Positions 39,994-58,434 of a DNA stretch of 64,000 nt are shown here, in pieces (positions within the stretch are counted from its first letter, which is position 1; every line of letters starts with the position of its first letter). The notes below the pieces were generated by a model. That model was not told the origin of the DNA. It ran no database searches and saw only the letters and a list, made by a program, of their open reading frames with translations. The position numbers and the translations under genes are program-made. The stretch is taken from sequence record PZ445440.1; one strand, given 5' to 3'. This DNA is from a phage.

Positions 39994-40068
39994 GTAATTT
40001 TCCTCATTATCATTAAACTGGAGGATTTCTCCTCCATAATCGTATCACAATAAACGTAAAGCTTTGAC

Positions 40069-40755: not shown

Positions 40756-40797
40756 TTTATTTCCTTTCAAGACAATTCAAAGTTTATAACAAATTTA

Positions 40798-41214
40798 TTA
40801 TGCAGCAACCATCTGCTTTTTAATAGCTTCAGGCAGCGATTCAATATATTCTGGAATTTTAGAAGCAACAATTTCGCCAGCTGCAATTAGTTGTTCGTCG
40901 GCATCAACACAGTAAAAATCTTCAAGGCGTTCAGAACCGTCTTTATCAAGAACGATTTTAGCACCTGCTTCGATAGAATCTTTATAGTGCTTACGCATCA
41001 AATGAATCCACATATCAGACACATCGTTATCAATAAAACCATAAATCATAAAACGAGTTTCTTGTGGCAAAGATTGGAGTTTTTTAGCACTTGCGTCATC
41101 ACAATGCAGGACCCATGCTTTACGAACACGATTATGGTTATGTGGGTTAGCGTCAGTACGGATAGAAGTAACTTTCAGATCAGCAGCAGTGAAACCTTTA
41201 GCAGTAGTAAACAT
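40798..41214 (-). CDS. rpbA: RpbA-like RNA polymerase-binding protein by position
   Basis: 138 aa between gene 45 and gene 46 as T4 rpbA; identity not verified. Confidence 0.5.
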   Translation of the reverse strand: MFTTAKGFTAADLKVTSIRTDANPHNHNRVRKAWVLHCDDASAKKLQSLPQETRFMIYGFIDNDVSDMWIHLMRKHYKDSIEAGAKIVLDKDGSERLEDFYCVDADEQLIAAGEIVASKIPEYIESLPEAIKKQMVAA

Positions 41215-41226
41215 ATTATTTCTCTC

Positions 41227-41427
41227 TTATTCGTAGAAGTCGGTAACTGTCCATGCGGAATTGCGATTAGACATTATTTTATTATACTCATCTTTAAAAG
41301 CAGATTTGAGCATTTGTTCAGTAACAATATGTTCTTCACCTGAAAACGTATTGGTCAAAACATATTTTTTAATTTCAGGGACAACGAGAAGATGTTGGCC
41401 GGTTGAATACTCCATGTTGTTCTCCAT
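41227..41427 (-). CDS. hypothetical protein (66 aa)
   Basis: ORF in gene array. Confidence 0.55.
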   Translation of the reverse strand: MENNMEYSTGQHLLVVPEIKKYVLTNTFSGEEHIVTEQMLKSAFKDEYNKIMSNRNSAWTVTDFYE

Positions 41428-41469
41428 TTAATTTGATGTGGTCATTATAACCACATCATGTTAAAGCGT

Positions 41470-43158
41470 TTATGAAACAGTCATTACAGTAAATCGTCCA
41501 ACTTTGCTCATCTGAAGATGTTGTCCATAAGCTTGTGGGTCATGGTCTCTGTGACTAATTATAAACACGTTTGCATTGGTTAGAGAGTTAAGAATTGTTG
41601 AAATAGCTTTAATACCTTCAGAATCAGTCGCGGAATCCATGACTTCGTCCATAATTAATGTATTGATTCTAACACCAGAAACCTTTTCAGCAATATCTCG
41701 CCATGTAAACAACAACGCGATATCGATACGTGCTTTTTCACCTTGACTAAATGAAGCATAACTGAACTCTTCACGACCACGTGATTTTATAGATTCATTG
41801 AATTCTTCGTCAATAGAAAACACGTAATCGGCTTCCATGATTTTAAGATAATGGTTAATCTGCTTATTGAACAAAGGCACGTATTTTTTAATGATAGCAC
41901 CTTTAATACCAGAATCTTTTAACATATCTGTGATAATACCACGGTGGTATTTTTCAAGAACGATGTCTGATTTTGTTTTAATGATTTTATCAAGTTCTTT
42001 TTGAAGCAAAGCTATCTCATCGGCATGGTCGATAAATTCCGCCGAGGCTTGTTCTATTGCAGCTTTAACTTTCTTAGCTTTATCAATAGTGGCAATCATT
42101 GCTTGTTTCTTGGTACGAATATCAGATGCAAGGTCCTGTTTAGTCTTAACATTAGCTCTGTATTCGTCCACTAGGACACTCAGATTATCTCTGTGACATG
42201 TAAGTTGCTCGAATGAGTGATTACATTCGTGAAGCTTATCGGTAATCTTAGAGACAATAGGATCACCCTGGTGCAACTGTGATGCGCAAGTAGGACACGT
42301 ACCGCCATCATGATACATCTTAATAACTTTGTTATATGAGTCGATTTTAGATTTAATCAAGAATGCTTCTTGTCCTATCTTGTTGAATGCCTCAGTAGGG
42401 TCTTCATCAAGAACGATATTAAGTAGTCGCTCATTAGCTTCTTCGATTTCTGCTTTTAATGAACGAGCTTCTTTGGCTAGGTCGTCATACATATTCTGTA
42501 GACGCGCTACATTATCGCCAGATAATTTCTTTTGACGTTCGATATTCTCGTTATAAATCTTAATTTGTTGGATAACACCATCTTTCTTGGCATCGAGAAC
42601 TTGCCCTTGGGAATTAAGTTCTCGAACTTGAGACTTATTGATTTTATCCATTTCAGCGAGTGTGCCAACTTCTAAAAGGTCTTCGACAAGTTTTCTACGA
42701 GCAGGGGTGCTAAGAGCCATGAAAGGGGTATACCCTGCCGTCCCAAGCACAACGATTTGTTTAAAAGACGCGTATGACATTCCGATGCTACGTTCAAATT
42801 CTTCTTGGAAGTCACGACTGCTGGCAGATTCATCGAGACGAACACCGTCAACGGAGATTTCGAAAATATTGGGCTTTTGGCCACGTCTAATGAAGTATTT
42901 TTTATCATCGAATTCCATCCAAAGCTCAACTAAGAGCTCTTTCTTGTTCGTGCTATTAATGATTTGTCCTTTCTTAACATCACGAAATGGTTTACCGAAA
43001 AGTCCGAAAGTAATGGCTTCTAACATCGTAGATTTACCACCGCCATTTTTACCAGTGATTAATGTCTTTTGGACTTTATCTAATTGGATATCAATAGGAT
43101 TCCCACCTACCGACATGATGTTTTGATAACGAACACGATTTAATTTAAATGATTTCAT
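41470..43158 (-). CDS. 46: recombination endonuclease subunit gp46 (Rad50/SbcC-like ATPase)
   Basis: 562 aa; Walker A GKNGGGKST, central coiled coil with CPTC hook, C-terminal signature/D-loop region. Confidence 0.9.
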   Translation of the reverse strand: MKSFKLNRVRYQNIMSVGGNPIDIQLDKVQKTLITGKNGGGKSTMLEAITFGLFGKPFRDVKKGQIINSTNKKELLVELWMEFDDKKYFIRRGQKPNIFEISVDGVRLDESASSRDFQEEFERSIGMSYASFKQIVVLGTAGYTPFMALSTPARRKLVEDLLEVGTLAEMDKINKSQVRELNSQGQVLDAKKDGVIQQIKIYNENIERQKKLSGDNVARLQNMYDDLAKEARSLKAEIEEANERLLNIVLDEDPTEAFNKIGQEAFLIKSKIDSYNKVIKMYHDGGTCPTCASQLHQGDPIVSKITDKLHECNHSFEQLTCHRDNLSVLVDEYRANVKTKQDLASDIRTKKQAMIATIDKAKKVKAAIEQASAEFIDHADEIALLQKELDKIIKTKSDIVLEKYHRGIITDMLKDSGIKGAIIKKYVPLFNKQINHYLKIMEADYVFSIDEEFNESIKSRGREEFSYASFSQGEKARIDIALLFTWRDIAEKVSGVRINTLIMDEVMDSATDSEGIKAISTILNSLTNANVFIISHRDHDPQAYGQHLQMSKVGRFTVMTVS

Positions 43159-43409
43159 ATGTATTCTCTTCGAATGAAGTCCTCTACATATTTTAACATG
43201 TCATCTCTATCAGCAAAATATTCATCTAGTTCTGCATACATAACAACACCTGGTGCGTACTCACAGGTAACATACATTGTTCCAAAGAAACGAGGAGTTG
43301 ATTCCTCGTAATTCTCAGTCCATTCAACGATACCAATATAACCGTCACCAATACTAAATTCATGACGATGGATTTCATAATCAGTCTTCGTCATTATACG
43401 CATCCTCAA
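43155..43409 (-). CDS. hypothetical protein (84 aa)
   Basis: ORF overlapping the gene 46 start by 4 nt. Confidence 0.6.
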   Translation of the reverse strand: MRMRIMTKTDYEIHRHEFSIGDGYIGIVEWTENYEESTPRFFGTMYVTCEYAPGVVMYAELDEYFADRDDMLKYVEDFIRREYI

Positions 43410-43638
43410 TACACGCTTCAGCCATTTTAAGAATAGAGCCGGGAGTATCGTTGTCCATTATATTAAAGCTAAATTCAATAGCCCAGTCGGTGCAGACATG
43501 AACTGCTTTAACTTCATTGCCTTCAACGCGTAATGGCTCAATCCAATACTTGATAGTGTTCTCGAATCCATCATCATCTTTAACGTCTATTTCAACTTCA
43601 AGCCTGAGTCCAGCATTGTTAAATTCATCTAAAGTCAT
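43381..43638 (-). CDS. hypothetical protein (85 aa)
   Basis: ORF in gene array. Confidence 0.55.
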   Translation of the reverse strand: MTLDEFNNAGLRLEVEIDVKDDDGFENTIKYWIEPLRVEGNEVKAVHVCTDWAIEFSFNIMDNDTPGSILKMAEACIEDAYNDED

Positions 43639-44654
43639 TGTGTTGCCTCAATATAAAGTTCGTTGGAATATTTGACCAGCGCTTCTCTGTCTTCGTCTGA
43701 GATATCTGGAATCGCGTCAATATATTCTTTAATGATATCTTGAAGTGATTTAATCTCGATTTCCTGGTCGTCATCAGATTCAACACTGTTATCAACTTTA
43801 GAAACCATACGAAGAGAGTGAACTACTTTTTCAAGTTCAGATTCAAACTTAGTCAACTCTGAATCAATTTCTGATACTATAACACGTACGGCTAGATTGG
43901 TATAATCAGAATAATTGATTTTGCCTTTAAACGGATAAGTGATTCGTCGATGCCATGTTGTTTCATTAGGAATAAATTCCATACGTTCAACATCAGTGTC
44001 AAATACCCAGAATCCACGAGGATCATTCTCATCGCCTGCAGTAAGGGTCCATGGTGTCCCAATATATTTGACGTTAGCAGCTTCAGAGATTGTGTGGAAG
44101 TGGCCAGACCAGACTTGTTTATAGGTCTTTAAGAAATCAGGTTCAAGCCCATGAGACTTCATTCCTTTATAGAAATAAAAACCATTCAGTTCCCAGTGCC
44201 CAACACAATACGCTGCAGAAGAAGTCTTGATGTGCTCTAAGATTTCACCTGTATTTTCTTCACACATCCATGGAACGATATCAATCAGACATCCGTCAAA
44301 ATCTACAGTAGTTGGATGCTCGTAAATAGTAAAGTTTTCAAATTGAGTTAACAATTCAGAAACAGTGTTAGGTGTTATGGTATTCTTAAACGCCATGTCA
44401 TGATTTCCTATCGTGACATGAACGTGAATGCCTGCTTTAGAAATCATATCAACGATTTCACGATTGAATTCCATTGTACGATGTGTTATTGCTTTACGGA
44501 CGTCAAACCAATCACCGTACTGAATCCAAGTTTTAATCCCGTGTTTCTTAGAGTATTCAATTGCTTGACGAATACCATCACGTTGAATATCTTGAACCCA
44601 TGGGTCGTCTTGTTTGACTCCGATATGGAAGTCGCCTAAGTGCAAAATTTTCAT
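43635..44654 (-). CDS. 47: recombination nuclease gp47 (Mre11/SbcD-like phosphoesterase)
   Basis: 339 aa; metallophosphatase motifs LHLGDFH, GDWFD, GNHD, GHFH. Confidence 0.9.
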   Translation of the reverse strand: MKILHLGDFHIGVKQDDPWVQDIQRDGIRQAIEYSKKHGIKTWIQYGDWFDVRKAITHRTMEFNREIVDMISKAGIHVHVTIGNHDMAFKNTITPNTVSELLTQFENFTIYEHPTTVDFDGCLIDIVPWMCEENTGEILEHIKTSSAAYCVGHWELNGFYFYKGMKSHGLEPDFLKTYKQVWSGHFHTISEAANVKYIGTPWTLTAGDENDPRGFWVFDTDVERMEFIPNETTWHRRITYPFKGKINYSDYTNLAVRVIVSEIDSELTKFESELEKVVHSLRMVSKVDNSVESDDDQEIEIKSLQDIIKEYIDAIPDISDEDREALVKYSNELYIEATQ

Positions 44655-44694
44655 ATTATTTCCTCATTAGTTAATTCATTCTATCATCCGTTTA

Positions 44695-44724
44695 TAAAGC
44701 AAAAAAGGAACTCCGAAGAGTTCC
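44695..44724 (-). terminator. intrinsic terminator (GGAACUC-UUCG-GAGUUCC + U6)
   Basis: Plus aaaaaa-ggaactc-cgaa-gagttcc immediately after the stop of the small ORF 44724-44897. Confidence 0.6.
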
Positions 44725-44897
44725 TATCCACATAGTACACCGTACAGAGGCTCATTTGAACTTTTAAATCGAATGGGCTTGTATGTAATAGTTCCTTCGG
44801 CTTTAGCTTTATCATAAGACTCTTTAAAACGTCTCATTCTTTCTGCTTTGCCTTTACGGATTTTATCGAAATTTTCAGAAGTCGGGATGTTCGTCAT
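44724..44897 (-). CDS. small hypothetical protein (57 aa)
   Basis: Hand translation MTNIPTSENFDKIRKGKAERMRRFKESYDKAKAEGTITYKPIRFKSSNEPLYGVLCG; terminator directly after its stop. Confidence 0.45.
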   Translation of the reverse strand: MTNIPTSENFDKIRKGKAERMRRFKESYDKAKAEGTITYKPIRFKSSNEPLYGVLCG

Positions 44898-44936
44898 GCA
44901 TAAGCACCTCTCAGAAAATGCCTAAATCAATTTCTC

Positions 44937-45158
44937 TCATCGTTTCCACCATTTCTTAACTTGAAATGAATCGACCCACACGAGTTGTTTTGGGTCTGCC
45001 TTTACAATAGGCGGACAAATTTCTGTAATAGAACCGTCGTGATATTCCTTTTCAGAAATTTTAACACAAAGAGGACCTCCCAATTTAAGGGTGAACCCTG
45101 CGTTCAGCTTCAGACGTTTAAACTTTATTTGAACTAGCGCCATTAATGATGTCCTCAA
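44937..45158 (-). CDS. hypothetical protein (73 aa)
   Basis: ORF in the slot where T4 has alpha-gt. Confidence 0.5.
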   Translation of the reverse strand: MRTSLMALVQIKFKRLKLNAGFTLKLGGPLCVKISEKEYHDGSITEICPPIVKADPKQLVWVDSFQVKKWWKR

Positions 45159-45441
45159 TAGCCTGACGAGTAGTAACCCACTGGATTTTAATTAACTTGT
45201 CATTGTATGGTTGTCGTAGAATATCCCGAGATTTCTTAATAGCATATTCGTAAGCTTCGAAGTTGTTTTGAATTGCTGCTTCTTGAGCATGAGCATAAAG
45301 ACGGTTTAGTTCAAAACGATTCTTTTTAAGAATCTTTTCGGATTTTTTACGTGCTTCAGCTTCATTTTTCTTTTGGATTTCTTGTAGCATTTTAGCTACT
45401 GCATCTTCTGCTTCTTTATTTTCAATAATCTCGGTAGTCAT
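45118..45441 (-). CDS. hypothetical protein (107 aa)
   Basis: ORF in gene array. Confidence 0.55.
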   Translation of the reverse strand: MTTEIIENKEAEDAVAKMLQEIQKKNEAEARKKSEKILKKNRFELNRLYAHAQEAAIQNNFEAYEYAIKKSRDILRQPYNDKLIKIQWVTTRQAIEDIINGASSNKV

Positions 45442-45442
45442 A

Positions 45443-45658
45443 TTATCTCATTAAATTAAAATAAAAACGTCCATCCTCTTCAATACAGAACTCGTACTCA
45501 ACTGGAGTTCCATTTATCGAAAATGACACGTCATGTGGGTTCAAAGGGTCGATGTCAAAATTAATTTTAAATTCTCGACCCAACAGTTTTACCAAATAAG
45601 GGATTGCTTCGTCAAAAGGTTCTTCTAAGTAGTTAGAGATGTCAATTGTCATCCTCAT
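45443..45658 (-). CDS. hypothetical protein (start uncertain)
   Basis: Track ORF overlaps the gene 55 3' end; start moved to an internal ATG. Confidence 0.4.
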
Positions 45659-46199
45659 ATAAAAAATCCAAACTAGGCGAATCGCTAACAACTTCCTTCT
45701 TTTCAGCCCCAGGAGCTTTATAAGCGGATTCTTCATAATGCGTCATTTTATCGTAGATGTCTTGAATAAACGTTTCATCTACCAACGCTACCATATCATC
45801 GTCATGACTGTCGTAGACATTATGAACGAAGTAACTATATTTCTTTGCAACTTCCTTACGTTCTTTTTTGATACGTTGGACAAAAGCATTAAAACAAGCT
45901 CGAGTTATGTATGCATGTGGGTTATTGTACTTAGTTTCGTCGAAATTATGAAGTCCCTTAATAGAGGCTTCAATCCCATCTGCAATCATCTCCTGCTTCC
46001 AAGACTGGGTATATCCTGAAAAGTTGAAACGTTTGGACAGGCCTTCGGCGATAAGCATAATTGCTAAACCGATGGTATCATTCTGACGAATAATTTTGTT
46101 TGGGTCTTTATTATTTAAGAGCTCCTTTTTCCACTCGATTATAGCGGCGAGAAGCTCTTTATTATTCACATAGTTATTTTTAGGTTTTTGTTCAGTCAT
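45642..46199 (-). CDS. 55: late-transcription sigma factor gp55
   Basis: 185 aa; [105 protein letters not shown] nearly identical to T4 gp55 from memory. Confidence 0.95.
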
Positions 46200-46274
46200 A
46201 AGTACCTCTTAGCTCAATTCATAGGTCTATTATATCATAATATTTAGAGACCTATCTTAAAGCACGAGATACTA

Positions 46275-46541
46275 TCAGAGCAAACAATAAGCCTGAAACA
46301 CTTTTTCCATTAAACGTTTGAACTCATGGATATCGATATAAAGCTCAGTAAGACCGGCATTATAAAGAAAATCTAAAAAGTTCTCATGTGTTTCGTTATA
46401 GACGCCTTCGTTTAATTGAGATACATGAGTTTCCCAAAAACCAACACCTTTAACGAATGGAAAATACGTGACTTTCATGTATTCGTCAACATAAAATTCG
46501 CCCAGCTTTTCTTCAGTTATACTGATTCGAGTTAATTTCAT
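46275..46541 (-). CDS. hypothetical protein (88 aa)
   Basis: ORF in gene array. Confidence 0.55.
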   Translation of the reverse strand: MKLTRISITEEKLGEFYVDEYMKVTYFPFVKGVGFWETHVSQLNEGVYNETHENFLDFLYNAGLTELYIDIHEFKRLMEKVFQAYCLL

Positions 46542-46765
46542 TCTAGTTCCTTTGCTGCTTCAAGAGCAGCATCCAGCGAATCAAATTGGTCAACGAAATC
46601 AATATTCAACGCATCGTCAACCGTAGCATATAACCACCATTGTTTGAATTCGTATTCTAGAATAAATCCAGGACCTTCAATCTGAGGAAGACCTAGGCTA
46701 TTTGTACCAACTTCGTAACCAGCTAGACGCAGGTCATTAATCAAAGTTTCTGTTAATACGCTCAT
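46538..46765 (-). CDS. hypothetical protein (75 aa)
   Basis: ORF in gene array. Confidence 0.55.
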   Translation of the reverse strand: MSVLTETLINDLRLAGYEVGTNSLGLPQIEGPGFILEYEFKQWWLYATVDDALNIDFVDQFDSLDAALEAAKELE

Positions 46766-47142
46766 TTTACCGCCTTAACAATTTTCAGATCAACGAATTT
46801 TTTCTTACGTTGATTTTTCATACGACGGATAGTCTTTTCAGAGATTTCATGTTTCTGATAAGCTTTAGATTCAACACCAAATGCAGCAACGTCAAATTCA
46901 GAAAGAATATATTGTACTAGAATTTCGCGAATAGAATTACGTCCAATTTTCTGGTCGTGTTTTTGCATGATTTCATAAAGACGGAATTCCCACGCGTCAA
47001 GAACTTGAGGAGTAACAATATTGCCGGATTCCAGAAGAGCAACAACTTTATCGAAAGCGAAAGAATTAACTACGTTTTTGATTTTAGTAGACATATTATT
47101 TTCCTCGGTTATTTTATTATCCAACGAGAGAATTATATTCAT
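46762..47142 (-). CDS. hypothetical protein (126 aa)
   Basis: ORF in gene array. Confidence 0.55.
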   Translation of the reverse strand: MNIILSLDNKITEENNMSTKIKNVVNSFAFDKVVALLESGNIVTPQVLDAWEFRLYEIMQKHDQKIGRNSIREILVQYILSEFDVAAFGVESKAYQKHEISEKTIRRMKNQRKKKFVDLKIVKAVK

Positions 47143-47160
47143 CTCTCAAGAGTTTGTATA

Positions 47161-47400
47161 CTATTTTTTAAGCATGAAAAGTAAGTAATTTGTATCACGT
47201 GGAGTAATATCAACACCCATATCAAAGATGCCTTTATAGATTGGGTATTTGTTTTCGGTTGTATCGAAGCTGAAACTATTTCCATCACAACTAACAGTAA
47301 TAGCATCTGTTAAAATGTCATACTCAATCCTAACAATTGAATCCCCAATTTTAACGTCGAGGTGTTTTTTGAATTTGATAAAATCTAATTCTTGGGCCAT
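47161..47400 (-). CDS. hypothetical protein (79 aa)
   Basis: ORF with upstream promoter and SD. Confidence 0.55.
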   Translation of the reverse strand: MAQELDFIKFKKHLDVKIGDSIVRIEYDILTDAITVSCDGNSFSFDTTENKYPIYKGIFDMGVDITPRDTNYLLFMLKK

Positions 47401-47431
47401 GATATTTTCCTCATTTTAAGACGATAGGAAG

Positions 47432-47460
47432 ATAATAACATGTCTTCCTATCGTTGTACA
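47432..47460 (-). promoter_or_regulatory. early-type promoter; -10 inside an 11-bp inverted repeat CGATAGGAAGA/TCTTCCTATCG
   Basis: Minus TGTACA(-35 variant)-N17-TATTAT; palindrome arms at 47423-47433 and 47443-47453. Confidence 0.45.
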
Positions 47461-47463
47461 TTA

Positions 47464-47664
47464 TTAACCGAACTTTTTAGCGCCTTTCCAGCCTTCGTAC
47501 ATAACTGCACAAGTCAATAGCACAGCATGTTGGCATTCTTTGTATTTGTAAATCCAGAACCAGCGTAAGAAGTCTTCATCCTCAACACCGTTGAGTTTCA
47601 TATTGGCAAAGAATTCGGCACGTTCTTCACGAAGCTTTTGCGATAACATAGTTTCAGGATTCAT
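47464..47664 (-). CDS. hypothetical protein (66 aa)
   Basis: ORF in gene array. Confidence 0.5.
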   Translation of the reverse strand: MNPETMLSQKLREERAEFFANMKLNGVEDEDFLRWFWIYKYKECQHAVLLTCAVMYEGWKGAKKFG

Positions 47665-47889
47665 TTAAATTTCCCAATTGCCATTTTCATCAATAAATTT
47701 AATCCAGTCAGTTACTGACCACTTAGTTGTATCGCCTTTTGGAGTAGCATTTAAAGTGTAGAACCCTTGCTTAAAAAGCCAGCGTTTGATATTCATAATT
47801 TCCTCAACTGTAACGATAACATTCGTTAGCTTTACGTTTGGCTTCAGTATGAGAAGTATTATAATCATAATCTTCTTTACTGTAAACAT
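47665..47889 (-). CDS. hypothetical protein (74 aa)
   Basis: ORF in gene array. Confidence 0.5.
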   Translation of the reverse strand: MFTVKKIMIIILLILKPNVKLTNVIVTVEEIMNIKRWLFKQGFYTLNATPKGDTTKWSVTDWIKFIDENGNWEI

Positions 47890-48125
47890 CTTTTTTTCAA
47901 CTTACGAACTTCTTTGCGGAGTTGTCGATTCATTTCATTCTTGACTTCAGAATCAACGCCTTTCATACGTTTCCATTTATCTGAGCGGAAAATGTTTTCA
48001 ACCATGTCTTTGTGGCTAACACCGTCAGGAGCTTTACGCTTACCAAAATAGTCGTAATCGCGAACTTTCAAATCTTTACGACGATATGTTTTACCCATAA
48101 GTACCTCAGAGGTTGATTGATACAA
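47877..48125 (-). CDS. hypothetical basic protein (82 aa)
   Basis: ORF in gene array. Confidence 0.5.
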   Translation of the reverse strand: MYQSTSEVLMGKTYRRKDLKVRDYDYFGKRKAPDGVSHKDMVENIFRSDKWKRMKGVDSEVKNEMNRQLRKEVRKLKKRCLQ

Positions 48126-48354
48126 TGCGTTTGATAAAATTCACTTCACTTACTGAAAGGTCTTTAAGACCGATTGATTCTAAACGCTGAGTAAGCGTCA
48201 ACATCGGGATATAATCCCAATGAGTTTTATTTGCTTGATAAGTACGAACGCCGTTAGCAATTTCAACATGCAAATCGGAAATGGTAATGAATATCGGACG
48301 TTCGTCATTAACTTTAAGGGTTAGAACAACTTTCTTTGAATCTAAACTAATCAT
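48106..48354 (-). CDS. hypothetical protein (82 aa)
   Basis: ORF in gene array. Confidence 0.5.
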   Translation of the reverse strand: MISLDSKKVVLTLKVNDERPIFITISDLHVEIANGVRTYQANKTHWDYIPMLTLTQRLESIGLKDLSVSEVNFIKRIVSINL

Positions 48355-48533
48355 GGCTTAATTTCCTTCGCAATTGAACAGAAGATACCACGGTCACAAA
48401 GCATTTCACCAATTTCTGGATATTTGATTGAACGGTACCAAACATCCAGGCTTGAAACTCTGGTTATCTGTACTGCGTTACCGTTGACAGAATAGTACTG
48501 GTCAACCTTAATTTCTTTATCTTCAATTGTCAT
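48351..48533 (-). CDS. hypothetical protein (60 aa)
   Basis: ORF in gene array. Confidence 0.5.
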   Translation of the reverse strand: MTIEDKEIKVDQYYSVNGNAVQITRVSSLDVWYRSIKYPEIGEMLCDRGIFCSIAKEIKP

Positions 48534-48698
48534 TTTATTTTCCTCTATAGTAGATGGTTTAATCTTAACACATCTATTGAGGATGTAAACTGTTTTATGA
48601 AAATATTTTCAATTTGAGAGGGGCACAAGGAGATAGTGAAGTGAAGATTCCAATGGATTATATTAGAAACGAGATAAAGAAGACCAGGCGGCACCTGG

Positions 48699-49070
48699 TC
48701 AATCTTCTATGATATCAGAGTCATATCCTAATGAAATCAAGGACTTTTTAAACTCTGCAATATTCTTTTGTTTCTTATCATTTAAAAATATGACAGGATA
48801 ACGAATATTAAGTGAAGTGAATCCTGCACGTTTAGCAAGAGATACGATTAAAGGACGGTCATATTCAATCTTACCATTATTAGTGAGGACTTTATAAAAT
48901 GTATAAGGAGCATTGAGCTCCTTTAAAAGTTTTGTAACAGTATAACATCCTGGACAACGTCCAACTTCTTCAGGGATGCCATAAACTTCAATTTTATTCT
49001 TTGGGTTCGAGTTTTGTTCCACGAGAAATAATTCCTTGATAAGCCCAGTACGGCGGGTTAACAGAATCAT
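48699..49070 (-). CDS. nrdH: glutaredoxin/NrdH-like redoxin (start uncertain)
   Basis: Redoxin domain KIEVYGIPEEVGRCPGCYTV begins exactly at the stop of ORF 48994-49305 with no canonical start codon; nearest in-frame ATG is at 49070. Confidence 0.5.
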   Translation of the reverse strand: MILLTRRTGLIKELFLVEQNSNPKNKIEVYGIPEEVGRCPGCYTVTKLLKELNAPYTFYKVLTNNGKIEYDRPLIVSLAKRAGFTSLNIRYPVIFLNDKKQKNIAEFKKSLISLGYDSDIIED

Positions 49071-49305
49071 CACCAGAATTTTCTTCAGGGAAATAAACCT
49101 GAATAACGAATCCGGATTCGTCAAAGGTAAAATACACTGTAGGCAGTTCACCAAGCAATTCGGAACGAGCGTTAATTTCTTCGAGGTCTTGCTCACGTCC
49201 AGCCCAAAAACTAGGATTTAAACTACATTCGTAAAAATAATAGTCATTACCGAACATATCAAAACCCTTCCAACTCTCTACCACGTACCGCTCAAAACTA
49301 ATCAT
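48994..49305 (-). CDS. hypothetical acidic protein (103 aa)
   Basis: ORF; its stop codon abuts the redoxin domain in another frame. Confidence 0.5.
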   Translation of the reverse strand: MISFERYVVESWKGFDMFGNDYYFYECSLNPSFWAGREQDLEEINARSELLGELPTVYFTFDESGFVIQVYFPEENSGDDSVNPPYWAYQGIISRGTKLEPKE

Positions 49306-49307
49306 AA

Positions 49308-49523
49308 TTAAGCCTTTTTATCAAGAACAGAATTCAGTTTATTAGTAATTTTGTCCAAACGTTCATTGAATTCGCTGGAGGATAAACCCTTTTCTGGAGA
49401 AATTAAACTAATCACGAAAAATACACCAGTAAAAGGAATAAGAAAAATAGCTCCAACTGCCATAAACAAAAAGAACGTTACAGTTGTAAGAAAATCAGCT
49501 AAACCTTTACGAAATTTGTACAT
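49308..49523 (-). CDS. small membrane protein (71 aa)
   Basis: Hydrophobic segment LTTVTFFLFMAVGAIFLIPFTGVFFVISLI. Confidence 0.55.
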   Translation of the reverse strand: MYKFRKGLADFLTTVTFFLFMAVGAIFLIPFTGVFFVISLISPEKGLSSSEFNERLDKITNKLNSVLDKKA

Positions 49524-49633
49524 ATTTACCCTTAATTAACTAAGCATTGATAATCATTAAACTATATTGCGAATAAAATTCTGGACCAAAACGAAAAATC
49601 ATATCATTTATAGTATCCATAATGTAATTCAAT

Positions 49634-50104
49634 TTAATCATGTTTCCACACCCCATCGGTATTTGACCAAAGTCGCTGATTATCTGATCCTCGCCACAGC
49701 TTTTTAGTCGGAAGATTTTTCTCATACTTCCCATCAATAATAACATCAACATATTTAAGCATTTCTAGTTGTTTAATATCTTCAAACTTATATCCTGTCC
49801 ACAACCAAATGCTTTTATTGGGATAAAGATTTTTTACTGTTTGAGCAATGCGATGAATAACATCTCGGTTATCAGGATAGAGAGGGTCACCTCCGGTTAT
49901 AGTTAATCCTTCTATATAATCATTATTCAAACATTCAATTAATTGTTCTAGTGTTTCACCGGTGAATGGAACACCATTTCTAGCATTCCATGTTGATTTA
50001 TTATAACACCCTTCACATTTATGCAAACAACCTGTAACGAAAAGAACGACCCTGCAACCAGGGCCATTCACAAAATCGCAAGGATAAAATCTATCATAAT
50101 TCAT
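49634..50104 (-). CDS. nrdG: anaerobic ribonucleotide reductase activating protein NrdG (radical SAM)
   Basis: 156 aa; CxxxCxxC-like cluster GCLHKCEGCYN; overlaps nrdD start by 4 nt. Confidence 0.85.
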   Translation of the reverse strand: MNYDRFYPCDFVNGPGCRVVLFVTGCLHKCEGCYNKSTWNARNGVPFTGETLEQLIECLNNDYIEGLTITGGDPLYPDNRDVIHRIAQTVKNLYPNKSIWLWTGYKFEDIKQLEMLKYVDVIIDGKYEKNLPTKKLWRGSDNQRLWSNTDGVWKHD

Positions 50105-51918
50105 TGGTGTTTAACCCTATGCATGATTTCTTTATTTTTGCCTAGATTAAATCCGCGTTCGTTTGGATTTCCCAAATAACCGCATGTTCTTCTTATTGTG
50201 TTCATCTTTTTAGGATCAGTTTCTCCGCAAACTGAACAAACAAATCCATTTTCAGTAGGAGTCATTTCATGAGTACTTCCGCATGTAAAACATTTATCTA
50301 CTGGCATATTAACACCAAAATAATCTAAATGTTGTGCAGCATAATCCCAGACAGCCTCAAGTCCTTTTAAGTTATTTTTCATATCAGGAAGTTCAACATA
50401 AGAAATGTGACCACCTGTCGCAATGAAATGATATGGCGCTTCACGAGAAATCTTTTCAAACGGAGTAATATTTTCTTCTACTGAAACATGGAAACTATTA
50501 GTGTACCAGCCTTTATCGGTAACATCTTTTACGCTTCCATATTTTTCTGTATCGAGTTTACAAAAGCGATAACAAAGGTTTTCAGCAGGAGTAGAATATA
50601 AACTAAAAGCAAATCCGGTTCTTTCAGTCCACTGTTTAAGATGAGCATTCATTTTAGTTAAAATTTCTTGTCCAATATCACGACCGACAAGAATATTCAA
50701 TTCGTGAATACCGATGTATCCCAAAGACACTGAACTTCTACCATTTTTAAATAACTCAATTATGTCATCATCAGGTTTAAGACGAACCCCGAATGCACCT
50801 TCTTGGTAAAGAATAGGAGCAACAGTAGCTTTAACTCCTTTTAAGGAACTAATTCTACACATCAAGGCTTCAAAACACAGGTCCATTCGCTCGTCGAACA
50901 ATTCAGTAAATTTCTGTTCATTGAACTGTGTTCCAATATAAGAATCTAATGCGATACGAGGAAGATTCAGTGTTACAACACCGAGATTATTACGTCCATC
51001 AAGAATTTCATTACCAGTCGAATCTTTCCATACGCTCAAGAAACTACGGCAGCCCATTGGAGAAACTGGAACTGAAGAACCGGTAATAGCTTTATTATTC
51101 TTAACCGAAATAATGTCAGGATACATTCTTTTGCTTGCACATTCTAACGCAAGTTGTTTAATATCATAGTTCGGATCATCTTTATAAAGATTAACACCTT
51201 CTTCAACAAACATAACAAGCTTAGGGAAAATAGGAGTTATTCCATCACGACCAAGACCTTTAATGCGGTTTTTAAGAATTGCCTTCTGAATCATTCGTTC
51301 AGTCCAATCGGTTCCCGTACCAAATGTAATTGTTACAAAAGGAGTTTGTCCGTTTGAACTAAAGAGAGTATTTACTTCATATTCATAAGCTTGGAATGCG
51401 TCATAGACATCTTTTTCTGTTTTAGATTGAGCATAATTCAGAATGTCTGGTATTTGCCATTTTTCTGCATCTTCAACATGTTTAGCGTATGTGCGTTTAA
51501 CATAAGGAGAAAGAACTTTATCGACATTCGCAAATGTAGTTCCGCCATACTGGTGTGAAGCAACTTGCGCGGTAATTTGTGCCATAATTGCAGTAGCAAC
51601 GCCAATTGATTTAGGAGTTTCAATCTGTGCATTACCAAGCTTAAATCCGTTCTCAAGCATTCCTTTTAAATCTACTAAACAGCAATTAGTAAATGGAAGA
51701 GCAGGAGAATAATCAATATCATGCATGTGAATGATTCCGCTTTCATGCGCATTCATAATAAAAGACGGGACCATATTTTTGGCAATGTGCTTAGACACAA
51801 TACCAGCCATAAGGTCCCGTTGAGTTGGAAAAACACGAGAATCTTTATTAGCATTCTCGTTCAAAAGATCTTTATTAGTTTTATGAATTAATCCTTCAAT
51901 TTCTTTTTCAATTTTCAT
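50101..51918 (-). CDS. nrdD: anaerobic ribonucleoside-triphosphate reductase NrdD (intron-less)
   Basis: 605 aa continuous ORF; C-terminal glycyl-radical region and CxxC zinc ribbon (CFTCGSTHEM...CSVCG). Confidence 0.9.
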   Translation of the reverse strand: MKIEKEIEGLIHKTNKDLLNENANKDSRVFPTQRDLMAGIVSKHIAKNMVPSFIMNAHESGIIHMHDIDYSPALPFTNCCLVDLKGMLENGFKLGNAQIETPKSIGVATAIMAQITAQVASHQYGGTTFANVDKVLSPYVKRTYAKHVEDAEKWQIPDILNYAQSKTEKDVYDAFQAYEYEVNTLFSSNGQTPFVTITFGTGTDWTERMIQKAILKNRIKGLGRDGITPIFPKLVMFVEEGVNLYKDDPNYDIKQLALECASKRMYPDIISVKNNKAITGSSVPVSPMGCRSFLSVWKDSTGNEILDGRNNLGVVTLNLPRIALDSYIGTQFNEQKFTELFDERMDLCFEALMCRISSLKGVKATVAPILYQEGAFGVRLKPDDDIIELFKNGRSSVSLGYIGIHELNILVGRDIGQEILTKMNAHLKQWTERTGFAFSLYSTPAENLCYRFCKLDTEKYGSVKDVTDKGWYTNSFHVSVEENITPFEKISREAPYHFIATGGHISYVELPDMKNNLKGLEAVWDYAAQHLDYFGVNMPVDKCFTCGSTHEMTPTENGFVCSVCGETDPKKMNTIRRTCGYLGNPNERGFNLGKNKEIMHRVKHQ

Positions 51919-52388
51919 TTTAAACTCTTTCTAAGCTGCTTTTTGAATGAAGCTATTAATTGTGTTTTAGTATCAGATTCATTATATTCAAATCCTCTTT
52001 GAAGCATCTCGACCATCATTTCCTCTTTACCTAGTCTTGAGAACTCTTTAGTTTTGTCTGGAACAAAATTAGGATGGATATTATTAGCAGAATAATCTTG
52101 TTTCAAATAAGCAAGAAGAGCTTCAAGCCATTCGAGGTAGTCGACATCACGTCCTTTAAGACCAGAACGGTTGAACTTATGCTTCATTTGGCCTTCTGCT
52201 GCGTTGCACAGAGAACAGAGTAACCCACGAACCTTACCAGCTTTTGGCCCGTTTAATTCATGGTCGTGGTCAAGATGGTTACCTTGAACATCAGGGTCTA
52301 ATTCACGGTGGCAAATAGGACACTTACCGTTCTGTGCATCATAAAATTTTTGTTTTTCTTCTTTATATTTTGCGCCTGATAATAACAT
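51915..52388 (-). CDS. 49: endonuclease VII (gp49), Holliday junction resolvase
   Basis: 157 aa; MLLSGAKYKEEKQKFYDAQNGKCPICHRELDPD...HLDHDHELNGPKAGKVRGLLC matches T4 endo VII from memory. Confidence 0.9.
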   Translation of the reverse strand: MLLSGAKYKEEKQKFYDAQNGKCPICHRELDPDVQGNHLDHDHELNGPKAGKVRGLLCSLCNAAEGQMKHKFNRSGLKGRDVDYLEWLEALLAYLKQDYSANNIHPNFVPDKTKEFSRLGKEEMMVEMLQRGFEYNESDTKTQLIASFKKQLRKSLK

Positions 52389-52423
52389 GATAAACCCTTA
52401 CCTTAAATAGATAAGGGTATTTA

Positions 52424-52849
52424 TTAACTTAAACGTCTTTCTAAATATTCAATGTATTCCGCTGCGGCTTGCATCAGATTACCTTCATAACCATCATTAT
52501 TTTCTTGACCGGCTAATTTAGCTAATGCATAAGAAATTCGTTCACCTTCGAATTCGCCAAGTTTACTACCTAGCACATCCGCAATATCAGCCGAATCAAT
52601 TTCTTCGAGTTCATCTATTGAATGAGATTCCCAGAAGCACCAAAGAGAAGTATCACGGTCATAGATGCAAAGTTTCTCACCTGTGTTCAACATCACTTCG
52701 TTAATGCCATGGTCGCCATAACCATCTTCGGTAGTAGTACCAATTACCTTGATGATTGTTCCTTTCTTTAATTCAGGAAACTTGACTTGTAGTTCTTCAT
52801 CTTCTTTAACAATCTTGAACCATTTACCGCGAGTTTCAGAAATATTCAT
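52424..52849 (-). CDS. pin: Pin-like protein by position (start uncertain)
   Basis: Follows gene 49 as T4 pin does; 141 aa from the internal ATG MNISETRG; identity not verified. Confidence 0.4.
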   Translation of the reverse strand: MNISETRGKWFKIVKEDEELQVKFPELKKGTIIKVIGTTTEDGYGDHGINEVMLNTGEKLCIYDRDTSLWCFWESHSIDELEEIDSADIADVLGSKLGEFEGERISYALAKLAGQENNDGYEGNLMQAAAEYIEYLERRLS

Positions 52850-53149
52850 ATCAATATTCTCTATAAAAGTTACGATGAGAACGTTTAGCTTTGCGAAGCT
52901 GACGTTTAGTAGGACGAACTGTAAATGGTTGTCCAGAGAAAAAATTCGGATCGGTTTTAATAAGCAAATACCAATCATGTTTGCCATTTTTTAATAAACG
53001 GTACAATAATTTAACTTGCATAATAATCTCTTCCCATTTCCATATCAATTAATTCATTTATTGAAGGTTCATCATAACATGGTTCTTCGTCGTTGTAAAC
53101 TGTTTCGACGTCTGGCTCGACTGTCTCCCATCGAGCAGAATACCACGGT

Positions 53150-53506
53150 TTAACCCCGGAGTTTATTGAGCTCTTCATAATCAATCCAGGATTCTAGCCC
53201 TGATGGCAGGTCACATTCAATGTTCCACAGAAGCTCTTCAATGGCTTGCAGGCGATTATATTCTTCAACGGTAATGGTAACCATTGGTGCAACCGGTTCT
53301 GCCTTTTTAACCATCATATCGTTCATCAGGACGTAAAGGTCATCACGAACGACAGTGTCGTTCCATCCCCATGATTTGGCTTCGTAAGCTAATGATGAAG
53401 GGAGCACATTTAAAACTTCAATAATAGTTGGAGCATCAGGACCAAGTTCATTGGCACAAACTTCGTATACATCTTGGAAATCTTTAAGATTTAATGAATA
53501 TGTCAT
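53150..53506 (-). CDS. hypothetical protein (118 aa)
   Basis: ORF in gene array. Confidence 0.55.
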   Translation of the reverse strand: MTYSLNLKDFQDVYEVCANELGPDAPTIIEVLNVLPSSLAYEAKSWGWNDTVVRDDLYVLMNDMMVKKAEPVAPMVTITVEEYNRLQAIEELLWNIECDLPSGLESWIDYEELNKLRG

Positions 53507-53524
53507 TTAAAATTTTCTCGCAGG

Positions 53525-53821
53525 TTATTGTTCTACCCATGAACAAGAGACTTCAAAATCAGGACCACCGTATTCCCAGTGATATTCACCAACAGGAATC
53601 CAGTCACCGTGCTCGTTTTCTTCATAGTCCTCAGGCTCAAGGCCAACGAATCGCCATTGGACACCGATGATTCGATTACCCATCATTACTCGAAATTCGC
53701 CCCATGGATTATCGATAGCATACTGAATATCGTTCTTGGCACGAGAGCACATTTCTTGATATAATAAAGCTTCTAATTCACCCTGGTCATAAGGGCCAGG
53801 GAAAGTTAAATCAATACTCAT
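53525..53821 (-). CDS. hypothetical protein (98 aa)
   Basis: ORF in gene array. Confidence 0.55.
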   Translation of the reverse strand: MSIDLTFPGPYDQGELEALLYQEMCSRAKNDIQYAIDNPWGEFRVMMGNRIIGVQWRFVGLEPEDYEENEHGDWIPVGEYHWEYGGPDFEVSCSWVEQ

Positions 53822-54081
53822 TTAAAATATTCTCGTAGTTGGTCAAATCCACCAATGTGACTTCCATCAGGAGCAAACACTTGAGGCATAGTCAATCCGA
53901 CTTGTGATTCACGTCCAAGCTTAACCAGAAGCTCAGCAATTTTCTCATCATCAAAAACACCTTTTTCTGGCATAACATTAATGAATTCGAACGGCTGTTT
54001 CTTAACAGTCAGCAATCGTTTCGCATTATCACAATAAATGCATTTATGAATAGTAGAGTCATACCCGTACACTTTAAACAT
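53818..54081 (-). CDS. nrdC: thioredoxin/glutaredoxin NrdC
   Basis: 87 aa from MFKVYGYDSTIHKCIYCDNAKRLLTVKKQPFEFINVMPEKGVFDDEKIAELL...; nearly identical to T4 NrdC from memory. Confidence 0.9.
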   Translation of the reverse strand: MFKVYGYDSTIHKCIYCDNAKRLLTVKKQPFEFINVMPEKGVFDDEKIAELLVKLGRESQVGLTMPQVFAPDGSHIGGFDQLREYFK

Positions 54082-54487
54082 TATTTTTCCTTTCATCGAT
54101 TAAATATGCAATGCCAAATACAATACATGTAATAAAACCTGTGATACAGATAGAAACCAACAACACCGTACCAAAGAACCAAATCAAGTTATCTTTAGTA
54201 GTTTGTTTGATATCCATCTCACGAATTTCTATAGCTATCGTATCACCTTTATTCAGAAGCGTATAAAACGACGGTGATACACGCCTGTCAAAAACTCGTC
54301 CTTGTTCATCTTTATAAACTGCAATAAATTCTAATTTAGAATATTTTCCTGTAGATTGGCCTGAGATTAATTCCACTACCTCCACAGGAATTACTTTAGT
54401 TTCCATGTAAGTATTCTGGCTGTTCCAAATGAATGGAATGATGGCAAAAACTAAAGCTGCAATAAAACAACGAAGGCTATATCTCAT
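54074..54487 (-). CDS. membrane protein (137 aa)
   Basis: N- and C-terminal hydrophobic helices. Confidence 0.55.
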   Translation of the reverse strand: MRYSLRCFIAALVFAIIPFIWNSQNTYMETKVIPVEVVELISGQSTGKYSKLEFIAVYKDEQGRVFDRRVSPSFYTLLNKGDTIAIEIREMDIKQTTKDNLIWFFGTVLLVSICITGFITCIVFGIAYLIDERKNNV

Positions 54488-54792
54488 TATAATGTTCTCT
54501 CAAATTTGTGGAAGCATTTACGGCATTTCAATTTCAAGTTATCAGTGGTCCAGTTAACCAGTTGGACTTGGATAGTTCCACATTCCGGACATGGATGTTT
54601 TGCTGCCGATTTGGCAGCATTTTCACGTCGTTCAACCATTTTCATGATTTCGTTCCATGCCGGAGGAACGAACTCTTCTTCACTATGAATTTTATCTCGT
54701 TGAACAAATTCAATCTTTGAACTATCGTCAATAAACTTAACCAAGCGGTGATTAGTGTTCATATCAATATCTTCTAAAAGACGTAGTTTCAT
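54487..54792 (-). CDS. zinc-ribbon protein (101 aa)
   Basis: CPECG...CRKC motif pair. Confidence 0.55.
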   Translation of the reverse strand: MKLRLLEDIDMNTNHRLVKFIDDSSKIEFVQRDKIHSEEEFVPPAWNEIMKMVERRENAAKSAAKHPCPECGTIQVQLVNWTTDNLKLKCRKCFHKFERTL

Positions 54793-55742
54793 TATAACAC
54801 CTCAATGGCATTTCGTAAACCATCCGCTTTAGCATTCAGAGCTTTTAACGATTTAGTTTGTTCTGCAATCTGGGCTTCGACTTCTTTCAGACGAGATTTG
54901 AGATATTCGCGTTCTTCTCTTAAGTTATCAACTTTTTCTGCTTTAGGCTCTTTAATAGACTTAGGTTTATATGTATTAGGGTTCTTCAACTTAATTTGAA
55001 TGCGAGAACTGAATAACATCGAACCGTTATCTTCGGTTTCACTGTGCATTTCTACCACATCCATGATTCTTAACATCATGCGAAGTTTATAAGACAGCGA
55101 ACGAACGGTTTTATTGTGCTTCTTAATTTCTTCAGCTTTCATGGTGCCGAGATTACGTGAGTAGTAATAAGGAACCTGGATATCAATTGATAATGATGCG
55201 TTACCATTACCAGTTGGTTTGAATACTGCAGTAACCCAATCTTTAACATGAACTTTATTTGTACGATCATCGCCGCCTGTGAATAATTTACAAGAATGTT
55301 TAAAAAGCATATTCACTTGGTTATTGAATTCACAAGCAAATTTATCAGCAAATTTAGTTTCAGGAATGGTAGTTAACCATTCAGCCAAATGAGTCTTTTT
55401 AACATCATTAACAATAGTGAATTCAACCAAATCGGTTTTAGTTGTCACAGATTTAATAAAGCTCGGCTTCATAAAGTTTTTAATGTTATCGCGAGCTACA
55501 GTAGAAGATAATAAACGAGAACGTTTGAACCATTGAAGCAACGTCCCTAACGAATGAGAATACGCATTTTGAGTATCTTTACAGATATGATTTTCTTGGC
55601 CTATGTATGTACCAAAATCGCGAAGAATACCACTTACTACATCTCGGTGTGGAACATCAAATCCTAGTGCACCAGAAGCACGTTGGGCATGAACGTTAGC
55701 GATAAGACCTGCAAAGTATTCAATGTAATGTGAACGTGTCAT
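54792..55742 (-). CDS. hypothetical protein with C-terminal coiled coil (316 aa)
   Basis: ATG with GAGG SD; heptad-like C-terminus EEREYLKSRLKEVEAQIAEQTKSLKALNAKADGLRNAIEVL. Confidence 0.65.
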   Translation of the reverse strand: MTRSHYIEYFAGLIANVHAQRASGALGFDVPHRDVVSGILRDFGTYIGQENHICKDTQNAYSHSLGTLLQWFKRSRLLSSTVARDNIKNFMKPSFIKSVTTKTDLVEFTIVNDVKKTHLAEWLTTIPETKFADKFACEFNNQVNMLFKHSCKLFTGGDDRTNKVHVKDWVTAVFKPTGNGNASLSIDIQVPYYYSRNLGTMKAEEIKKHNKTVRSLSYKLRMMLRIMDVVEMHSETEDNGSMLFSSRIQIKLKNPNTYKPKSIKEPKAEKVDNLREEREYLKSRLKEVEAQIAEQTKSLKALNAKADGLRNAIEVL

Positions 55743-55770
55743 AATATTTTCCTCTCGTTAAGATAGATTC

Positions 55771-55800
55771 ATTATACTCCAACCATCCTTGGTTGTAAAC
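55771..55800 (-). promoter_or_regulatory. early promoter, conserved 29-bp module
   Basis: Plus ttatactccaaccatccttggttgtaaac (minus GTTTAC-N18-TATAAT). Confidence 0.55.
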
Positions 55801-55804
55801 TATT

Positions 55805-56764
55805 TTATGATTTTAATGCATTCATTGCGTTAAAAAGTTTAGAATACTGCAACTGGAGATTCGTTACAACACTTTGAGCATCACGAAGCTTAGCTTGTGC
55901 TTTGTCAAGTTCAACAGACAGTTGGTCTACAGTAGCCTTGATTTGGTTGTAATGATAATCTTCGGCTGGAAGAAGGTCATTAGAAACATTTAGTTTTACT
56001 GCAGACAGTTTGCACACATTTGGTAAACCTTTAAACATTGATTTACCTGAAGTAGAATAAGCACTTAGGACTTCAGCCTGTTCAATTGGGGTCCCAGTAA
56101 GCGATGCTTCGAACGTTGCATTTTCCTTTTTAAGATTTTGATAGTATTCAGAGTCTTTGTGCCACCATGGCGCAGGAACCTTTTTACCAATAGATACACG
56201 AGCCTGGATAGCGATATGGCCCTTATTCTTGATAGGGTCGATAATATTAAGCTCACGAGAATAAATTGCTTTAATCTCATGGATATTATCGCCTAACACT
56301 TCTAGCGCTTGGTGGAATACACGAGCAACGTTATCATTCTTAGGTTTATACGTAAGAGTGAACTCGTTCTCACTGATAACCATGATTTCTAACTTATCGT
56401 AAGTGTACTTAAGATGCTTCATGTTAACCGCTTGAGGACGAATACGAGAAGCAATGGCCATCAGATTGTTAAGGTTATTCCGGAACTGCTTAGCGAAATA
56501 TTGTCCTTCACCACCAATACAAAAATTACGAAGTTTCTGTTTGGCTAATAAACGGCTGAACTCACCATTTTTAATGAACTCTTTAACGGGTGTGTTAGTA
56601 ACGCATTCAAATTGAGTAAACTTACGAGAATTAATCCCATAATACGAACAGATTTCCTCAATCTCTTCAGGAGTCTTTACAGGCATACGGATAGGATTAG
56701 GTCCTGGAGTATATGCGTTCGAGGTAAATTCTTTGATAAGTTCTTTACGTGTAATAAAAGCCAT
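55805..56764 (-). CDS. hypothetical protein with C-terminal coiled coil (319 aa)
   Basis: ATG with GAGGAA SD; own promoter module. Confidence 0.65.
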   Translation of the reverse strand: MAFITRKELIKEFTSNAYTPGPNPIRMPVKTPEEIEEICSYYGINSRKFTQFECVTNTPVKEFIKNGEFSRLLAKQKLRNFCIGGEGQYFAKQFRNNLNNLMAIASRIRPQAVNMKHLKYTYDKLEIMVISENEFTLTYKPKNDNVARVFHQALEVLGDNIHEIKAIYSRELNIIDPIKNKGHIAIQARVSIGKKVPAPWWHKDSEYYQNLKKENATFEASLTGTPIEQAEVLSAYSTSGKSMFKGLPNVCKLSAVKLNVSNDLLPAEDYHYNQIKATVDQLSVELDKAQAKLRDAQSVVTNLQLQYSKLFNAMNALKS

Positions 56765-56791
56765 TTTATATTCCTCATGTTGAAAAATTTA

Positions 56792-56820
56792 TTATACTCC
56801 AACCATCCTTGGTTGTACAT
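56792..56820 (-). promoter_or_regulatory. early promoter, conserved 29-bp module (variant -35)
   Basis: Plus ttatactccaaccatccttggttgtacat. Confidence 0.5.
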
Positions 56821-57656
56821 CATTCCTTAAGAAGTTTTACTACCTGAATAAGATTAGCTCGTTCTGTTTTATTTTTACCGTTTAAGCCTGCTAATCGTGA
56901 GATTTCATCGTCAGTCTGTTGAATAGTTACATTAAGTTCGTTAATCAAAGCTTCAAAGTATTTGATTTGCTCAGCATGTTTTGATTCAAATTTCTGAACC
57001 GGAATAACGTCTTGGTTTAGTTCATCAATAAGGTCTTTAAGAGCATCTTCTTGGTTGATATCATATTCAACTTCTTTTATTTCTTCAACGAGCTCGTCTT
57101 TATATCTAACGTCTTTTAGTCCTGGTGCTGGTCCTGAAATCTCTTCTTTAAGAGTACAAACATATCCAATACGGTATCCAATGCCGGCTCGCTTGATATC
57201 AACTTCGTCGATAAATCCACAATGTTTAAGCCCGGAGCCGATTAGGTCAAAATATCCTTGACGTCGTCCTTCAAACGTTACATGAACTACTAAGACAGTT
57301 TTACCTGCAACCTTTTGAAGCTCACATTTATAAAAGTCAGTTGAACCTGAATAACGTGGATGAGTTTTAAAGTTCATCTGACGATCTAGGCCCATTTGTA
57401 AACGCGCTGTTACGGCCAGAAAACGTGTTTGGTTCTCGTTAAGATGAGCAACAATCCATTTCAAAGGCATTTTACATTGGTCACGACAGAACAAATCAAC
57501 ATATCCAAGATTACGAAGGATATTGTTAGAGTTAATCATCGACAGAACGTTAAGTTTATTCAGCGCGCTGAAGATTCCATCAGCCATTGATTTTCCGTAA
57601 CCTTTACACGCTTTAATAAGTGCTCGCGGCAGATTAGTATAGATTTCAGACGGCAT
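56820..57656 (-). CDS. hypothetical protein with C-terminal coiled coil (278 aa)
   Basis: ORF in array. Confidence 0.6.
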   Translation of the reverse strand: MPSEIYTNLPRALIKACKGYGKSMADGIFSALNKLNVLSMINSNNILRNLGYVDLFCRDQCKMPLKWIVAHLNENQTRFLAVTARLQMGLDRQMNFKTHPRYSGSTDFYKCELQKVAGKTVLVVHVTFEGRRQGYFDLIGSGLKHCGFIDEVDIKRAGIGYRIGYVCTLKEEISGPAPGLKDVRYKDELVEEIKEVEYDINQEDALKDLIDELNQDVIPVQKFESKHAEQIKYFEALINELNVTIQQTDDEISRLAGLNGKNKTERANLIQVVKLLKE

Positions 57657-57879
57657 ATGAAAATCAAATTTACTCTAACCAGTAATTGATGAACTTGGAT
57701 AGCAATTTGTTCATAATTAAGTGCTCTGCGATCATTATGGTCTTTAAACCACACTTTAATCTGTGAAGCACATAAACCGTTAATTTCATGTTTTACCGCA
57801 TCAGATGTAATGCTCATAACTATTTCCTCAGATTGAATTGGAACTCAAAACCATTATAACCCGTCCTTGGGTAAAGCGT

Positions 57880-58407: not shown

Positions 58408-58434
58408 GTTTTACCTCCAGTAGTTGATAGGTCT

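Follow-up and report, generated by a model that had tools for sequence, protein, structure and literature searches.

The window, i.e., the whole 64,000-nucleotide stretch of phage DNA that was analysed (sequence record PZ445440.1), contains on its minus strand a run of genes in the order nrdD, nrdG, a 33-aa ORF, a gp55.8 homologue, a 103-aa hypothetical gene, nrdH, a terminator, and a 55.6 homologue (Table 1). An 801-base query across this locus was 100% identical to Escherichia phage ChristianSchoenbein (Bas46, MZ501056.1), which is classified in Straboviridae, Tevenvirinae, Mosigvirus, and it matched 445 other T4-like phage records at 80–99% identity. Positions 78479–128478 of MZ501056.1 match window positions 14001–64000 exactly. 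The IMG/VR scan returned 9 loci only, which were close relatives throughout. Unlike T4, this phage has no mobC homing endonuclease gene between nrdD and nrdG (window 49634–51918, minus strand). The nrdD intron with I-TevII present in T4 is also absent, and the nrdD CDS is a single uninterrupted 1818-nt piece.

Table 1. Features at and around the nrdH locus (window coordinates)
Feature	Position	Strand	Basis
Terminator, intrinsic hairpin (GACCAGGTGCCGCCTGGTC + T-rich tail) overlapping the nrdH stop; strong	48682–48700	−	
nrdH CDS, T4-type glutaredoxin-like redoxin, 107 aa (MEQNSNPKNKIEVYGIPEEVGRCPGC...), stop codon included	48699–49022	−	deposited bas46_0174 / QXV77018.1
ATT, Ile-11, first hydrophobic residue of strand beta-1; very probably not a start	48990–48992	−	
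Two-frame overlap of 29 nt: upstream C-tail ..SRGTKLEPKE* / NrdH N-tail MEQNSNPKN..	48994–49022	−	
Upstream conserved hypothetical, 103 aa, RB69ORF082c-like, phrog_2749	48994–49305	−	phrog_2749 match 5.6e-50
GTG, very probable nrdH start codon	49020–49022	−	in frame, conserved, aligned with T4 nrdH start
Shine-Dalgarno AAGGA, 10 nt upstream of GTG	49033–49037	−	pairing with 16S rRNA 3′ end; invariant in alignment
In-frame ATG, not conserved, unlikely used	49068–49070	−	pairing GGUG, spacer 0
gp55.8 homologue	49308–49523	−	local gene order
nrdC (own separate gene in the window)	53818–54081		

An earlier reading made from the letters of this DNA (hereafter the sequence-only reading) had placed the 103-aa ORF at 48994–49305 and a redoxin fold right after its stop codon. 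Both placements were correct; the ORF ends with TAA at 48996–48994, and the adjoining redoxin frame reads AAT AAA ATT GAA GTT TAT GGC (N K I E V Y G) and runs to its stop at 48699. The Ile codon ATT at 48992–48990 and a nearest in-frame ATG lying 76 nt inside the upstream ORF (49070–49068), both reported in that reading, were confirmed. The reading also implied that no standard start was available, but an in-frame GTG at 49022–49020 had been missed, and the apparent anomaly arose because this codon, which precedes the conserved domain by a few codons, was overlooked. It is 30 nt (ten codons) ahead of the Ile codon and begins 29 nt before the end of the upstream ORF; another in-frame GTG is present at 49073. 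A standard start codon, the very observation that the sequence-only reading had named as counting against it, is therefore found in the sequence as it stands. The GTG start of nrdH is already known, as it is annotated in this phage and in relatives; the annotation of MZ501056.1 places a glutaredoxin NrdH CDS of 107 aa at window 49022..48699 with GTG as the start.

One explanation offered for the abutting frames was a sequencing or assembly indel that split or displaced the reading frame, and the frame change itself is the only point in its favour. The finished GenBank genome is 100% identical over the 801-base query, and 12 of the 12 loci read that bear the upstream ORF (the insert) show the same frames, in independent isolates and metagenomes. 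The 107-aa product has matches at 95–99% identity in another 149 records (tblastn). The indel is refuted by these data, and we give it practically no weight.

The presence of the GTG by itself is weak evidence, because some in-frame ATG, GTG, or TTG is expected by chance within ten codons with a probability of ~38% [1 − (61/64)^10]. The case for this codon rests on its Shine-Dalgarno sequence, on its conservation, and on the lack of any other option in relatives. For the 3′ end of the 16S rRNA, the predicted pairing was −5.4 kcal/mol for GTG 49022, −2.8 kcal/mol for ATG 49070, where GGUG abuts the codon, −1.0 kcal/mol for GTG 49073, and −0.9 kcal/mol for ATT 48992. Pairing of −5 or better occurs at 10.7% of background positions (minus strand, 40000–60000 region), so the Shine-Dalgarno pairing of GTG 49022 falls within the top ~11%. 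AAGGA and GTG are 6 nt apart in T4 and PTE-Eco05, compared with 10 nt in the insert-bearing phages. As a point against the GTG, 10 nt is among the longest spacings that are still efficient.

The start region was compared in alignment A1, which consists of eight loci from Mosigvirus, Tequatrovirus with and without the upstream ORF, Gaprivervirus, and Dhakavirus. Across these four genera the AAGGA and GTG columns were invariant and the flanks were variable. In six loci that have no insert (T4-type L004, L006, L011, L012, and L013, and PTE-Eco05, L014), no ATG, GTG, or TTG other than this GTG occurs between the domain and the closest in-frame stop upstream. The GTG was likewise the only canonical in-frame start in ECML-359 (L017), in which the upstream ORF is present and an in-frame TGA lies 30 nt before the Ile codon. 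The differences in the stretch from the GTG to the Ile codon were synonymous in the nrdH frame (AAT AAA vs AAC AAG; AAT vs AAC in L012), and this frame was never interrupted in the loci compared. With tblastn, residues 1–107 matched in one frame in Mosigvirus and many Tequatrovirus records. In the insert-bearing phages, the conservation of AAGGA and GTG could partly be due to amino-acid constraint on the upstream protein, whose YQG codons contain the nrdH Shine-Dalgarno sequence and whose S-R/C-G codons contain the GTG. As the whole explanation, such a constraint is argued against because the phages without the insert keep both AAGGA and GTG. We thus consider it very probable that nrdH starts at an ordinary GTG at 49022–49020 with an AAGGA Shine-Dalgarno sequence; the homology of this codon to the annotated T4 nrdH start is shown by the comparison. 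The T4 start is itself an annotation, and our search of the literature on T4 NrdH and on the NrdH of this phage found no experimental mapping of the N-terminus and no usable ribosome-profiling data; we infer the use of GUG in vivo from the sequence and its comparison.

The comparison also bears on a start located further upstream, at ATG 49070 or GTG 49073, which would give a protein of 123 aa with a hydrophobic N-terminal extension (MILLTRRTGLIKELFLV...) and an overlap of 76–79 nt. This phage has the ATG and a frame that stays open as far back as 49196, but the ATG (position −78) is missing in five related loci (L002, L003, L005, L009, and L015), and in ECML-359 the frame is closed before the ATG position is reached. 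The T4-type phages have no equivalent of the extension sequence, the pairing at this ATG is weak and abuts the codon, and none of the deposited annotations compared uses it. A start at either codon is therefore highly improbable. Among the four options of the sequence-only reading, the long overlap came closest: the overlap itself stands, at 29 nt from the GTG, whereas the 76 nt counted from the ATG does not.

The other start proposed was the ATT itself, which would be used as AUU either directly or by termination-reinitiation after the upstream UAA, giving a tail-less protein of 97 aa, maybe beside the GUG product. In favour of this start, a single nucleotide separates the AUU from the upstream stop codon, the moskry-type phages have an upstream TGA that overlaps the codon next to the ATT on its 3′ side, and ATT is kept in 19 of 19 Escherichia-type loci. 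The length of the N-terminal tail is poorly conserved, and the Klebsiella phage homologues lack the tail; two of them, in JY1 and kv_tblp8, start at an ATG 1–2 codons before the Ile codon, which indicates that the tail is dispensable for the fold. In these two phages, however, the Ile codon is ATA, as predicted for a plain Ile codon, and ATT is thus not conserved as a start codon would be. Moreover, the ATT has no Shine-Dalgarno sequence, the stretch from GTG to ATT stays open with synonymous in-frame changes, and the T4-type phages keep an intact nrdH with Shine-Dalgarno sequence and GTG even though no ORF ends beside their ATT. The locus accordingly differs from AUU-initiated genes of the infC type, given a GTG 30 nt upstream, an ATT pairing of −0.9 kcal/mol, and ATA in the Klebsiella phages. 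With a GTG and its Shine-Dalgarno sequence available, initiation at the AUU has only a very small chance of being real. The narrower proposal, that ribosomes terminating at the upstream UAA (48996–48994) also reinitiate at AUU 48992 and produce a second, tail-less NrdH isoform, has no positive support from the sequence and appears slightly less probable still. If it were true, the amount of the tail-less isoform would track the translation of the upstream gene, and the site would represent AUU-dependent termination-reinitiation occurring naturally in a T4-like phage. A tryptic peptide of the AUU product would begin (M)EVYGIPEEVGR, and the internal tryptic peptide would begin IEVYGIPEEVGR.

A +1 shift would be required for fusion of the upstream protein to the redoxin domain by programmed ribosomal frameshifting. 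In its favour are the abutment of the two ORFs in different frames and an AAA G near the end of the upstream ORF, which could in principle allow a +1 slip of tRNA-Lys. The junctions, however, vary among relatives (CCC AAA GAA TAA, CTT AAA GAA CAA GAT TGA, and AAA CTC GAC TAA) and contain no conserved shift site, and the RNA fold of the 91-nt region was no better than that of shuffles (z = 0.67). In T4 and PTE-Eco05 nrdH stands alone, and in Klebsiella phage JY1 it starts separately, at the ATG of an ATGA stop-start overlap. Since the locus combines a variable junction and an unremarkable fold with an independent conserved Shine-Dalgarno sequence and GTG, it does not have the features of a programmed frameshift, and we regard such a fusion as scarcely credible. 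A heptamer C CCA AAG at 49005–48999 on the minus strand has the perfect X XXY YYZ form. It was considered and rejected as a shift site; it is read in the nrdH frame, was seen only in this phage and in the identical record (L001), and a −1 slip on it would lead only to the TAA of the upstream ORF two codons later. The other insert-bearing loci (L002, L003, L005, L007–L010, L015, and L016) have C TTA AAG instead. The heptamer is probably a chance occurrence.

The upstream gene belongs to phrog_2749, a family of unknown function whose homologues occur in Mosig-, Tequatro-, Gapriver-, Dhaka-, and Karam-like phages and share a conserved C-terminal W.YQG.IS.G.K. The gene is absent from T4 and PTE-Eco05, in which the AAGGA lies in the last codons of 55.8 (AAG GAA TAG/TAA). 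Unlike T4, this phage has the 312-nt phrog_2749 gene between 55.8 and nrdH, and the Shine-Dalgarno sequence and GTG of nrdH consequently lie inside that gene, which creates the 29-nt overlap. Because the Shine-Dalgarno sequence falls in the YQG codons and the GTG in the S-R/C-G codons, the overlap is constrained in both frames. In moskry and JS09, the upstream stop codon comes two codons later and the overlap is 35 nt. Residues 9–107 of the NrdH of this phage are 99% identical to PTE-Eco05 (tblastn), and the presence or absence of the phrog_2749 gene is therefore a recent polymorphism. The ends of the insert (48994–49340, compared with L014 640–740 and with L004) carry a similar RBS-like sequence, AAAGGCTTAATTATG at the left and CAAGGAATTATTTCTCGTG at the right, and PTE-Eco05 has a single copy, CAAGGAATAATTGTG. 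Gain or loss of the phrog_2749 gene via recombination between short repeats of the start region is suggested by this comparison.

Out-of-frame gene overlap is a common compact arrangement in T4-like phages. In the deposited annotation of window 14001–64000, 91 complete CDS start with ATG (86), GTG (3, nrdH included), or ATT (2), and 28 of the 88 adjacent same-strand pairs overlap, six of them by 14 nt or more, including another overlap of 29 nt. A GTG-started nrdH with a 29-nt overlap is thus ordinary in this genome. The second 29-nt overlap is, according to the deposited annotation, between the adjacent hypothetical genes 53011–53178 and 53150–53506 (minus strand). The two CDS annotated with ATT are a putative anti-sigma factor Srd (16309–17058, start site 17053–17058, minus strand) and a hypothetical gene (20931–21131, start site 20931–20936, plus strand). 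In both, the ATT is followed at once by an in-frame ATG (ATTATG), and GAGGA or AGGAG is present upstream. The true start of both is probably the ATG, and both would therefore be annotated one codon too long.

Sequence, synteny, and start signals identify the gene as the T4 nrdH orthologue. Its product shows 87% identity to T4 NrdH (NP_049686.1, 'NrdH glutaredoxin'; E = 3e-67, 100 of 102 residues). Both proteins have a CPGC motif, and both genes are downstream of nrdD-nrdG-55.8 and upstream of 55.6 on the same strand, with a GTG start preceded by AAGGA. The N-termini are composed of homologous residues, V-KQN-KIEVYG in T4 and V-EQNSNPKN-KIEVYG here; the tail is five codons longer in this phage (SNPKN), and the Shine-Dalgarno spacing is 10 nt rather than 6. 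The T4 record annotates NrdH with 'has glutaredoxin activity'; glutaredoxin activity (glutathione-dependent reduction) of the NrdH described here is putative. The same gene order, Shine-Dalgarno sequence, GTG, overlap, and deposited 107-aa product are found in other Mosigvirus and Tequatrovirus phages (moskry, JS09, teqhad, and fPS-2), which have the RB69ORF082c-nrdH arrangement; besides the later upstream stop, moskry and JS09 differ by the replacement of Pro-7 with Leu.

The closest solved structure by sequence is the T4 glutaredoxin NrdC, also called 'T4 thioredoxin' (PDB 1ABA, 1AAZ), although the match is weak (E = 0.008). The fold of 1ABA begins at the KVYG strand, which is aligned to EVYG here (1ABA residue 3 to NrdH residue 12), and the CxxC motif is at the same place. 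NrdC is encoded by a separate gene, and its active site is CVYC in contrast to the CPGC of NrdH. NrdH matched the phrog_22 thioredoxin domain (8.9e-16), and it scored 21.3 bits (E = 3e-4) against Pfam Glutaredoxin PF00462, just below the gathering threshold of 22.9 bits. The bacterial NrdH-redoxin, the reductant of class Ib ribonucleotide reductase, is likewise a small thioredoxin-fold CxxC protein linked to ribonucleotide reductase by name and neighbourhood. However, the neighbours here are the class III (anaerobic) genes nrdD and nrdG, not the class Ib genes nrdE and nrdF as with the bacterial NrdH. An NCBIfam scan at E ≤ 1 returned no NrdH model, the only match being a YruB-family glutaredoxin-like model at 14 bits vs a cut-off of 88.55. 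NCBIfam models and neighbourhood thus place the protein outside the bacterial NrdH-redoxin family, and 'NrdH' is used here as the T4 gene name.

The terminator hairpin at the nrdH stop marks the end of a transcription unit. After it, ahead of the 55.6 homologue, a promoter-like site TTTACA-16-TAAGAT with a TG extension is present at 48562–48589 (minus strand). A terminator and an early promoter are annotated at the equivalent places in phage fPS-2. The T4 late-promoter motif TATAAATA was absent near the locus, and sigma-70-type promoter sites in the scan were no more numerous than in shuffles.

With the GTG as the start, translation of nrdH would be initiated at a standard GUG at 49022–49020 of the minus strand under the direction of the AAGGA 10 nt upstream, and both signals would reside within the last 45 nt of the preceding phrog_2749 gene. 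The overlap may couple the translation of the phrog_2749 gene and nrdH, a coupling that we infer from the arrangement. The 107-aa product would consist of a tail of ~10 residues (MEQNSNPKN), followed by the first beta-strand (KIEVYG) of the thioredoxin-fold domain with the CPGC active site.

The biological weight of the locus is small, as nrdH has a normal GTG start that is already annotated here and in relatives. Before 'no start codon' is called, GTG and TTG codons that precede the first conserved residue by a few codons need to be taken into account, and start calling must permit an overlap of tens of bases with the preceding gene, since GTG and TTG starts and such overlaps are routine in T4-like genomes. 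For the phages themselves, the comparison indicates that the ribosome-binding site of nrdH stays with nrdH, whether it lies inside the end of 55.8, as in T4, or inside the end of the inserted phrog_2749 gene, as in this phage.
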